From positions 992,001 through 1,056,000 of the forward strand of contig OZ250172.1 in NCBI GenBank assembly GCA_965237905.1: 64,000 nucleotides of DNA. The letters run 5' to 3'. Below, piece after piece: positions 51,390 to 53,151 of this stretch (the stretch's first letter is position 1; each line of letters begins with the position of its first letter). This stretch comes from Nitrospinaceae bacterium. GTDB taxonomy: Bacteria; Nitrospinota; Nitrospinia; Nitrospinales; Nitrospinaceae. Below the pieces are notes generated by a model that was not told where the DNA came from, did not search any database, and saw nothing but the letters and a program-made list of their open reading frames with translations. The translations under genes were made by a program, and so were the position numbers.

Positions 51390-51444
51390 TTGACACACTA
51401 CAATATATGGTGGTACTTTCTCACAGTCACACAATATAAAGGAT
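51390..51444 (+). promoter_or_regulatory. sigma70 promoter overlapped by tandem NrdR-like boxes
   Basis: TTGACA 51390, TGnTACTTT 51411-51419; CTACAATATATGGTGG 51398-51413 and ACACAATATAAAGGAT 51429-51444, 31 bp apart. Confidence 0.65.
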
Positions 51445-51549
51445 TTTAGACTGTAACCGTACTTCTGTACTTGTTCGATCAACCTCAGATCATTTGGAAC
51501 CGAATGACCAGACTTACGAATCAAAATACAGATTTTCCCTGCCCCCCCC

Positions 51550-51937
51550 GGCGGGTTACTTTAAAAGCGGCTTCCTTTTCCCCCATGTATCTTTTAAACC
51601 TTTCGGGGTTTGAGATGCAGGTAATGCCCCTTCCTAAATCCTCAAATGTATTGAGCGCCGGCCGAGACCTGCATACACAATCGGCAAACAAGCTCATTCC
51701 AAGCGGCGTTAGGTGGAAGCGTTTTTTATGGTCACCGTTCGTTCCTAACGGAACGGGCCAAGGCCGAAGAGTAACCCGCCACCCTTTCGTACTATCGCCC
51801 CGTCGGCAGTGTAAGGGTTACCATGCTTTCTCTCTTCCATTGCAATCCTGTTTTCTGCCAGGGACAGGACGGTCGTTTGATCTTAAGGGGTTTGACCAGC
51901 CCACGCATCAACATTCCCTTGCGTCTTCCGACGGGGC
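51550..51937 (+). ncRNA. Candidate large structured leader RNA upstream of dut (unassigned)
   Basis: Two long-range 10-bp closing stems plus several internal hairpins. Confidence 0.5.
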
Positions 51938-51951
51938 TTCTTCATATTAAA

Positions 51952-52383
51952 ATGGCTATACTCGACGAATCGAAAACCGTTTGCCGGGTGGCAGGAGGGT
52001 TCACCCCCTCCTACGCCTACCCCGGTGACGCGGGAGCGGATTTGTGTGCCTCCGACGATACTGTCATCCCTGCCCGCGGCAAAATGCTGGTGTCTACCGG
52101 CATCCGCCTCGCATTGCCGGAAGGCCACGTCGGCCTCATCTGGCCGCGCAGTGGCATGGCCGTCAAACACGGTATCGATTGTGGCGCCGGGGTGATCGAC
52201 TCCCAATACCGCGGCGAAGTCAAAGTCCTCCTGTTCAATCACTCCGACGGTGAGCATTTCATCAAAAAAGGCGACCGCATCGCACAACTCCTCGTGCAGA
52301 AGGTCGAAACCGTGGAATTTCTGCCCGTCGACGACCTCGACGCCACTGACCGATCAGGCTCCGGTTTCGGCTCCACCGGCTAA
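51952..52383 (+). CDS. dut: dUTPase (trimeric)
   Basis: AGADL, PRSG, GVIDSQYRGE, GDRIAQ, RSGSGFGSTG. Confidence 0.95.
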   Translation: MAILDESKTVCRVAGGFTPSYAYPGDAGADLCASDDTVIPARGKMLVSTGIRLALPEGHVGLIWPRSGMAVKHGIDCGAGVIDSQYRGEVKVLLFNHSDGEHFIKKGDRIAQLLVQKVETVEFLPVDDLDATDRSGSGFGSTG

Positions 52384-52385
52384 CT

Positions 52386-52580
52386 CCTCTGGCGAGGAGA
52401 AGCAACTAGCTGACGTTTAACGGCTTGCTATAATCCTTGGGCGCACTTCGGTGAGTTAAAACTATCTGCGGCGATTCGCCGCCCTCTGGCGAGGAGAGGC
52501 AACTGGTTGATCGTTGATTGCAAGCGATGACCACCGGGCGCAGTTCAAGGTTTTAAATGACCACCGGCTGATTTCCCCCC
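52386..52580 (+). repeat. Diverged tandem repeat, two units with 97-bp period
   Basis: CCTCTGGCGAGGAGARGCAACTRG at 52386 and 52483; GGGCGCASTTC at 52439 and 52536. Confidence 0.75.
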
Positions 52581-52626: not shown

Positions 52627-53151
52627 ATGAAACTACAGGTCCATCAATCTGAAATCGAATTGATCCAGGGCGACATCACCGAAAGCGACACCGACGCCAT
52701 CGTCAACGCCGCCAATGCGCAATTGATTCTGGGCGCGGGGGTGGCGGGTGCCATCCGCACCAAGGGAGGTCCGTCCATTCAGGAGGAATGCAATGCCATC
52801 GGCCATTGCCCGGTAGGCGGGGCGGTCATCACCGGTGGGGGAAATTTAAAAGCGCGGCATGTGATTCATGCAGTCGGACCCCGCCAGGGCGAAGGCGATG
52901 AGGAAGAAAAATTAAAAAACGCCACTCTCAACAGTTTGAAAGTGGCGGATGAAAATCATTTGAAGTCGATCACCTTCCCGGCGATCAGTACCGGCATCTA
53001 CGGATTCCCCCTCGATGCCTGCGCCCGCATCATGCTCACCACCGCGAAGAGATACCTCAGCGGCACCACAAAAATCGAGCACGTCGTCTTCGCGTTATTC
53101 GACGATAAAAGTTTCAATGCCTTCGAAGATCAATTAAAGACGTTGTTATAA
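52627..53151 (+). CDS. Macrodomain protein (YmdB/MacroD-like)
   Basis: GDIT, AIVNAAN, GAGVAGAI, VIHAVGP, PAISTGIYGFP. Confidence 0.93.
   Translation: MKLQVHQSEIELIQGDITESDTDAIVNAANAQLILGAGVAGAIRTKGGPSIQEECNAIGHCPVGGAVITGGGNLKARHVIHAVGPRQGEGDEEEKLKNATLNSLKVADENHLKSITFPAISTGIYGFPLDACARIMLTTAKRYLSGTTKIEHVVFALFDDKSFNAFEDQLKTLL

Follow-up and report, generated by a model that had tools for sequence, protein, structure and literature searches.

What kind of RNA stands in front of dut in this Nitrospinaceae genome, and does it work for that gene or for something else? The window (the whole 64,000-nt stretch of DNA analysed) contains, downstream of a DUF4340 gene, a large region with folding potential, which an initial annotation took for a new nucleotide-metabolism riboswitch or a large non-coding RNA. 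On its other side, this region is flanked by dut, the gene for dUTP diphosphatase (51952-52383; TIGR00576 at 151 bits, cut-off 102.55), and by a macro-domain protein gene (52627-53151; PRK00431-type hits, under their cut-offs), both on the + strand, as are the promoter, the two RNA domains, and the upstream reading frame described below. Between these two genes are found two similar copies of about 35 nt (52386-52420 and 52484-52517), about 97 nt apart. A relative's contig skips the interval between the copies, and a 34-nt piece at 52525-58 also occurs on a separate contig, which gives this intergenic DNA a REP-like appearance.

The region is made of two domains, and domain 1 (51550-51780) is the universal RNA, as indicated by covariation, by the count of G-U versus A-C pairs, and by its occurrence in most genomes of the order (90 of 102). 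Its length varies from 203 to 261 nt across homologs. It is closed by helix P1 (51550-62/51768-80), next to the long, covarying helix P2 (51563-75/51715-26), and its core is formed by the near-invariant helices P4 (51655-60/51704-09) and P5 (51661-65/51681-85). The hairpins P3 (51586-619) and P6 (51730-65, absent from groups g7 and g9) are variable. Two strands are conserved in the alignments and unpaired in the consensus fold: J3/4 (51627-51654), which is C-rich and of nearly fixed length, and J5/4 (51686-51703), which ends with an invariant CCAA. A pyrimidine tail 3' of P1 (51781-51789) is a candidate 3' end for a released RNA; a C/U-rich run comes after P1 in dut-linked homologs, and after a separate hairpin in g9. 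Both domain-closing stems, the UUCG hairpin, and the dut ATG (51952, 14 nt past domain 2) are located where the initial annotation had placed them. Nevertheless, its proposed extension of P1 by CGGCTT/AGGCCG fails, as CGGCTT (51568-73) is part of P2 and AGGCCG (51761-66) is part of P6, and its inventory, correct for the helices, omitted the tandem NrdR-type boxes, the invariant P4/P5 core with its C-rich strands, and a 148-codon frame, all described below.

Three of the checks suggested for this RNA, namely folding against shuffled sequences, covariation among homologs, and a search of Rfam, came out in favor of a new structure. On the + strand, positions 51540-51950 (411 nt) fold with an energy of -145 kcal/mol (z -3.95, matched by 0 of 100 shuffles), compared with a z of only -1.12 on the - strand. 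In an alignment of 27 distinct sequences, 94.3% of the domain 1 cells are paired (88.9% when shuffled) and 18 pairs show two-sided changes (8.7 when shuffled), both values being equaled by none of 500 shuffles, although the covariation counts are inflated by the kinship of the sequences, according to the tool's own warning. Control pairings slid along the same alignment give 36-50% of paired cells. P4 and P5 hardly covary (one pair with two-sided change, versus 1.1 shuffled), because these helices scarcely vary. A folding z of -2 or less is reached by P3 in 16 of 26 lineages and by P6 in 19 of 24, with sequences that are unrelated between lineages; the leader reaches it in just 3 of 26. The non-Watson-Crick cells of P1, P4, and P5 in 64 homologs consist of 45 G-U, 7 A-C, and 2 G-A, and the + strand folds better than the - strand in 19 of the 24 compared. 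The excess of G-U over A-C points to domain 1 acting as an RNA structure of the + strand.

Domain 2 (51797-51937) comprises a long closing stem, whose sequence differs from lineage to lineage and which encloses a conserved 12-nt hairpin motif, TGYCARGGRCRG (51856-67). The motif is found in 56 of 64 homologs, and the domain is absent in g9, g7, g11, and g15. Within the genus, 96.3% of its cells are paired, and for 16 of 26 lineages its folding z does not exceed -2. From these alignments, domain 2 is a second module, conserved less than domain 1. Several other readings of the motif were rejected: a -35 box of the - strand (the -10 is not conserved), a CsrA site (GGA reads GGG in 11 of 57), and a coding 'CQGQ', which is in the dut frame in 12 of 13 g1/g4 sequences, while elsewhere the frames vary and the start is often missing. 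In 12 of the 13 g1/g4 sequences (L001-L009 and L012-L014), an upstream extension of the dut frame is open through domain 2 (51775-51951), and there are, therefore, two overlapping open frames there.

The distribution of the RNA was established with a covariance model of the 90-position core. Of 102 Nitrospinales genomes, 90 contain a strong match (E < 1e-10), one per genome, and none of 18 genomes from elsewhere in the phylum has one; the training sequences match this model by construction, while the g9 hits (56-59 bits) came from outside the training set. Among the 12 genomes of the order without the RNA, 11 are less than 90% complete and 11 are also without a dut match, so this absence fits assembly gaps. 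A DNA search of 41 related genomes also showed, for several families, that the sequence 5' of dut contains a conserved block. A pattern scan of GTDB species yielded 51 hits, of which 43 are real (helices present, one being cut by a contig end) and 8 are chance matches without P1/P4; this pattern misses g9 and g7, and more distant relatives could escape it. The real hits are titled Nitrospina, Nitrospinaceae, Nitrospinales, or Nitrospinota, save two (L040 and L070) titled Nitrospirota/Nitrospirae. These two carry the RNA and dut as Nitrospinales do, and L040 is identical here to genus member L002, so that their titles may be mislabels. In metagenomes, 99 real loci were counted among the 120 listed (about 150 in all), and all are Nitrospinales-like in sequence. 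Viral contigs gave 0 hits for the specific pattern, and for a loose pattern, with about 2000 loci of which 120 were listed, the core model run on 80 of those listed recovered no RNA (best score 11.9 bits).

None of the known RNA families searched accounts for this locus. In the window, Rfam 15 returned only a tRNA; over the region, at E ≤ 10, there were two chance hits (24 and 14.5 bits), and on 13 + 5 homologous loci (18 in total), there was no match on the RNA. The genome carries its 6S, RNase P, and SRP RNAs elsewhere, above Rfam cut-offs, and its tmRNA was also located elsewhere by ARAGORN, in agreement with the initial annotation, which had matched the region to none of the four. A cobalamin riboswitch was rejected, the GAGACC-like stretch being specific to this genus, as was a T-box (no Rfam score). 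Candidates for a retron or reverse transcriptase-associated RNA and for a Y RNA were dismissed because PF00078 has no match in this 96% complete genome, and Ro60/TROVE PF05731 has none in the genome either. In the literature searched, no description of this RNA was found, and the terms Nitrospina, NrdR, and dUTP are absent from the main text of PMC5737381. Judging from sequence comparison, the Nitrospinales RNA represents a new family of structured RNAs, whose regulator is unusual and over which a reading frame is laid.

The regulator is suggested by the promoter. A sigma70-type promoter (-35 at 51390-95, -10 at 51414-19) can be read from the sequence, a simple promoter scan having not listed it, and transcription would start near 51426. 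Tandem NrdR-type boxes (51397-51412 and approximately 51429-51444), with a 31-nt period, lie over this promoter and start site. NrdR is an established repressor of the genes for ribonucleotide reductase. The consensus used for searching was assumed to be that of the NrdR box, and the assignment rests on a check against nrdJ promoters: the same boxed arrangement is present 5' of nrdJ (class II ribonucleotide reductase) in this genome and in relatives. A box is found 118-180 nt 5' of P1 in all 64 homologs, box 2 is at 31-32 nt from box 1 in 61, and TTGAC is directly 5' of box 1 in 62. The nrdR gene itself is present in this genome and in four of five family-f3 genomes. According to passages of the published work, NrdR-repressed ribonucleotide reductase promoters are overlapped by two boxes at a distance of about three helical turns (PMC12051234, PMC9110341), paired boxes have a spacer of 15-16 bp (PMC12051234), and NrdR loaded with dATP/ATP is the repressing form (PMC9110341). 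Paired boxes with this spacing over the promoter are found in 61 of the 64 homologs. The RNA promoter thus likely belongs to a putative NrdR regulon, as the boxes are those seen at nrdJ, and the nucleotide link of the RNA appears to come via these boxes in the DNA. Unlike in the repressed reductase promoters, a structured RNA is transcribed first here, in g9 apparently alone; no description of a structured RNA first behind NrdR boxes was found in the parts of the literature searched.

Other boxes were observed in the course of these searches. A single NrdR-type box is found about 140 nt 5' of smc in five genomes (this one and four of five others; L086, L379, L381, L399, and L400), and another is 5' of an ssb-like gene in one genome (L397). 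The NrdR regulon may, from these occurrences, take in segregation and replication genes. In the nrdJ leader of this genome (L085, about 395-454), a perfect hairpin (28 bp, with a loop of 4 nt) is located downstream of the NrdR boxes and upstream of the nrdJ start; it does not stand out on visual inspection of the other nrdJ leaders compared.

The second unusual feature is a 148-codon upstream open reading frame (51504-51950), which runs across both domains and whose stop ends 1 nt before the dut ATG. All nine genus members share the positions of its ATG and of its stop, without any indel. Among these nine, the pN/pS is 1.0, compared with 0.12 for dut, and the variable columns are spread over the three codon positions as 57/50/50, compared with 30/11/97 in dut; the test for amino-acid purifying selection found none, with no codon-position bias. 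Permuting the changes among the 157 variable columns, the frame is stop-free at P = 0.002. Counted over 26 lineages (clusters below 80% identity, without L053), whose shared ancestry makes the frame P values overstated, a frame stays open across the whole of domain 1 in 19, versus 1.7 expected (18 of 24 versus 3.0 with dinucleotide shuffles), and the core is under an ATG-started frame of 38-168 codons in 23, versus 10.2 expected. Stop triplets are distributed between the three frames as 30/37/14 in P3 and P6 (P = 0.001, overstated in the same way) and as 31/32/13 upstream; downstream, they are unbiased (15/11/19). Selection acting on the passage of ribosomes, and not on a peptide, would account for this pattern.

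The frame is nonetheless not fixed across the order: its start, its stop, and sometimes its phase shift between lineages, g20 and g22 reading the core in another frame. No ATG-started frame covers the core in the three distinct g9 sequences, or in L016, L127, and L128, which are dut-linked. In g9 (L118-L121), g7, and L016, an ATG three codons 5' of P1 opens a short frame ending before the core. The C-rich strand is shortened by 1 nt in L130, L131, and L134-L137; this deletion creates a stop in the ancestral frame, and another frame is open instead; the domain lengths of these sequences remain a multiple of three. A -1 frameshift at a CCCAAAU heptamer before P4 was rejected, this heptamer being absent in this genome and variable elsewhere. 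The pairing energy of the dut initiation region with the anti-SD is -5.0 kcal/mol, for a genome median of -4.2.

Whether the RNA depends on dut can be examined in genus g9. The dut gene is directly downstream in 83 of the 90 RNA-bearing genomes, hidden by contig ends in 3, and detached in 4, all from g9. In the latter, the RNA and its boxes are flanked by a GGDEF gene on one side and by a convergent ParB_N gene on the other, with a hairpin after the RNA, while dut is on other contigs, without a box, and still paired with the macro-domain gene, which stays with it. Among the four g9 species, identity reaches 97.4% in the RNA and 94% in the promoter, compared with 63% at the wobble positions of the neighboring gene and 62% in the upstream DNA. 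It is thus the RNA, and not dut, that the boxes and the selection accompany, and, by this comparison, the detached RNA is under purifying selection. Since it stands alone in one genus, the RNA probably serves a function of its own while DNA is replicated. This independence from dut rests on one genus, that is, on a single evolutionary event, and, of all the forms, that of g9 departs the most from the others (changed core, no P6, no domain 2, and a hairpin competing with P1), so it may work differently from the other homologs.

The preferred reading, judged to be about evenly poised between right and wrong, is that of an NrdR-controlled folded RNA, free and probably protein-bound, which is not a riboswitch of dut and through which translation allows dut expression. 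At low dATP, NrdR would release the promoter, and the RNA would be switched on together with nrdJ. Two fates could follow. With a ribosome on the overlapping frame, P1-P5 would be unfolded and the C-rich strands covered, and transcription would continue into dut; in this genus, the ribosome would then be handed to the SD-poor dut start, one base past the stop of the upstream frame. Rho is present in the genome and might conceivably be involved in this read-through. Without a ribosome, P1 would close both ends ahead of the pyrimidine tail, and an RNA of approximately 230 nt would be released; a protein involved in replication or in the control of dNTPs would bind to its C-rich strands and to its invariant core of P1, P4, and P5. 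The g9 detachment and the sequence invariance within helices are the reasons for proposing such protein binding via the core. L016, L127, and L128, dut-linked and without an ATG-started frame over the core, are not predicted by such a read-through. In a run guessed to be RNA, relatives' short contigs extend over 51565-52214, and a control stretch gave RNase P-like contigs of mixed origin; neither was counted as evidence for transcription, for transcript ends, or for expression level.

The main rival is a cis-acting leader, either a riboswitch or a protein- or ribosome-dependent attenuator, tuning dut on top of NrdR repression; it is considered rather unlikely. In such a leader, domain 1 would be the sensor, and P1 with the tail and domain 2 would constitute the output. 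The position of the RNA directly 5' of dut in 83 of the 87 genomes with judgeable linkage speaks for such a leader, as does the fact that, of the metagenome hits whose downstream sequence exceeds 600 nt, just one, the g9-type L264, is without dut. Two modules with an upstream frame are also typical of leaders, and invariant helices with conserved junctions resemble an aptamer. On the other hand, the 97% identity is kept in g9 without any co-oriented downstream gene: a riboswitch would always be expected 5' of such a gene, and the RNA faces a convergent gene in the four g9 genomes and in L264. Aptamer cores are usually purine-rich, and the conserved unpaired bases are here mostly C. The two 'alternative' pairings of the initial annotation, which would provide a switch, reach at least 6 bp in only 6/64 and 3/64 homologs, and are, therefore, not conserved. 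What stands of that annotation is a new large structured RNA tied to nucleotide metabolism; its riboswitch for dut is not the preferred interpretation, given the selected, detached RNA in g9 and these unconserved pairings.

The C-rich strands suggest another function, in trans. Small RNAs such as RsaE, RoxS, or LhrC pair through C-rich strands with G-rich ribosome-binding sites, and several unpaired CCU/UCC motifs, an anti-SD-like tail, and the 3' end of the genome's own 16S rRNA, which reads CACCTCCTTT, are compatible with this RNA acting likewise. However, the best duplexes (-25.9, -22.0, and -18.5 kcal/mol, in 2553 crudely defined initiation regions) are within the range of 15 shuffled queries each, and pairing with nrdJ is not enriched in seven genomes (z -1.3 to +1.4). 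As no mRNA target above chance was found in the initiation regions of one genome, or for nrdJ in these seven, a base-pairing small RNA is deemed quite improbable.

A small protein gene, with an incidentally structured mRNA, is still harder to defend and has very little probability left. The open frame with its fixed ATG in the genus, and products forming 38 database protein clusters (mostly 144-161 aa, at best named hypothetical) with a recurring PLPKxPNVLSAxR translation, would favor it, but there is no Pfam match to the product, its pN/pS of 1.0 and even codon positions are those of an unconstrained sequence, start, stop, and frame move between lineages (g20/g22 using another frame), and g9 is without the frame. 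A MITE, another mobile or repeated element, or a DNA-level inverted repeat, for which P1 could serve as a near-invariant terminal inverted repeat, is refuted as far as tested and deserves hardly any credence, as there is one copy per genome (the multi-copy condition set by the initial annotation for a MITE), the synteny is fixed, P1 shows G-U and compensatory changes, and none was found in viral contigs (specific pattern, and core model on 80 loose hits).

The NrdR-controlled RNA of the preferred reading shares features with several known systems. Like the 6S, SRP, tmRNA, RNase P, and Y RNAs, it has a length of about 200-270 nt, ends paired in a GC-rich stem, a single copy, and an order-wide distribution; unlike in 6S and the other end-paired stable RNAs, the fold is branched, with an asymmetric C-rich junction. 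In translated leaders, of which those of mgtL/tnaC type are examples, and in attenuators, an upstream frame likewise lies over a structured leader. The frame is here long, in contrast; neither a peptide nor control codons are conserved in it, and conservation is far higher in the RNA core than in the frame. The nrdJ RNA motif and nucleotide-sensing riboswitches offer a further comparison: as with the ykkC subtypes, the cobalamin riboswitch, and the nrdJ motif, a multi-helix fold is found 5' of a nucleotide-metabolism gene, but there is no Rfam score at gathering or E-value thresholds, and the RNA is detached from dut in g9. An attenuator-derived RNA, rnTrpL, is reported to act in trans. As far as sequence comparison can tell, the RNA has, in its mode of action, something of both a translated leader and an end-paired stable RNA, and it fails the tests run for each named RNA family.

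This RNA is kept by nearly all well-assembled genomes of a major group of marine nitrite oxidizers. If it is indeed a core member of the NrdR regulon, a non-coding RNA would add an RNA layer to dNTP control. A more ambitious version, tentative and leaning towards the unlikely side, is that of a replication-timed ribonucleoprotein RNA, released at low dATP, whose own translation would decide between dut mRNA and folded RNA; if true, the bacterial control of dNTPs and of replication would have an RNA branch without a described counterpart. The open yet unconstrained frame offers a direct test of whether ribosome passage chooses between the mRNA and the functional RNA fates. With the alignment, the natural detached variant in g9, and cultured Nitrospina strains, these proposals are testable, and the family is fit for submission to Rfam.
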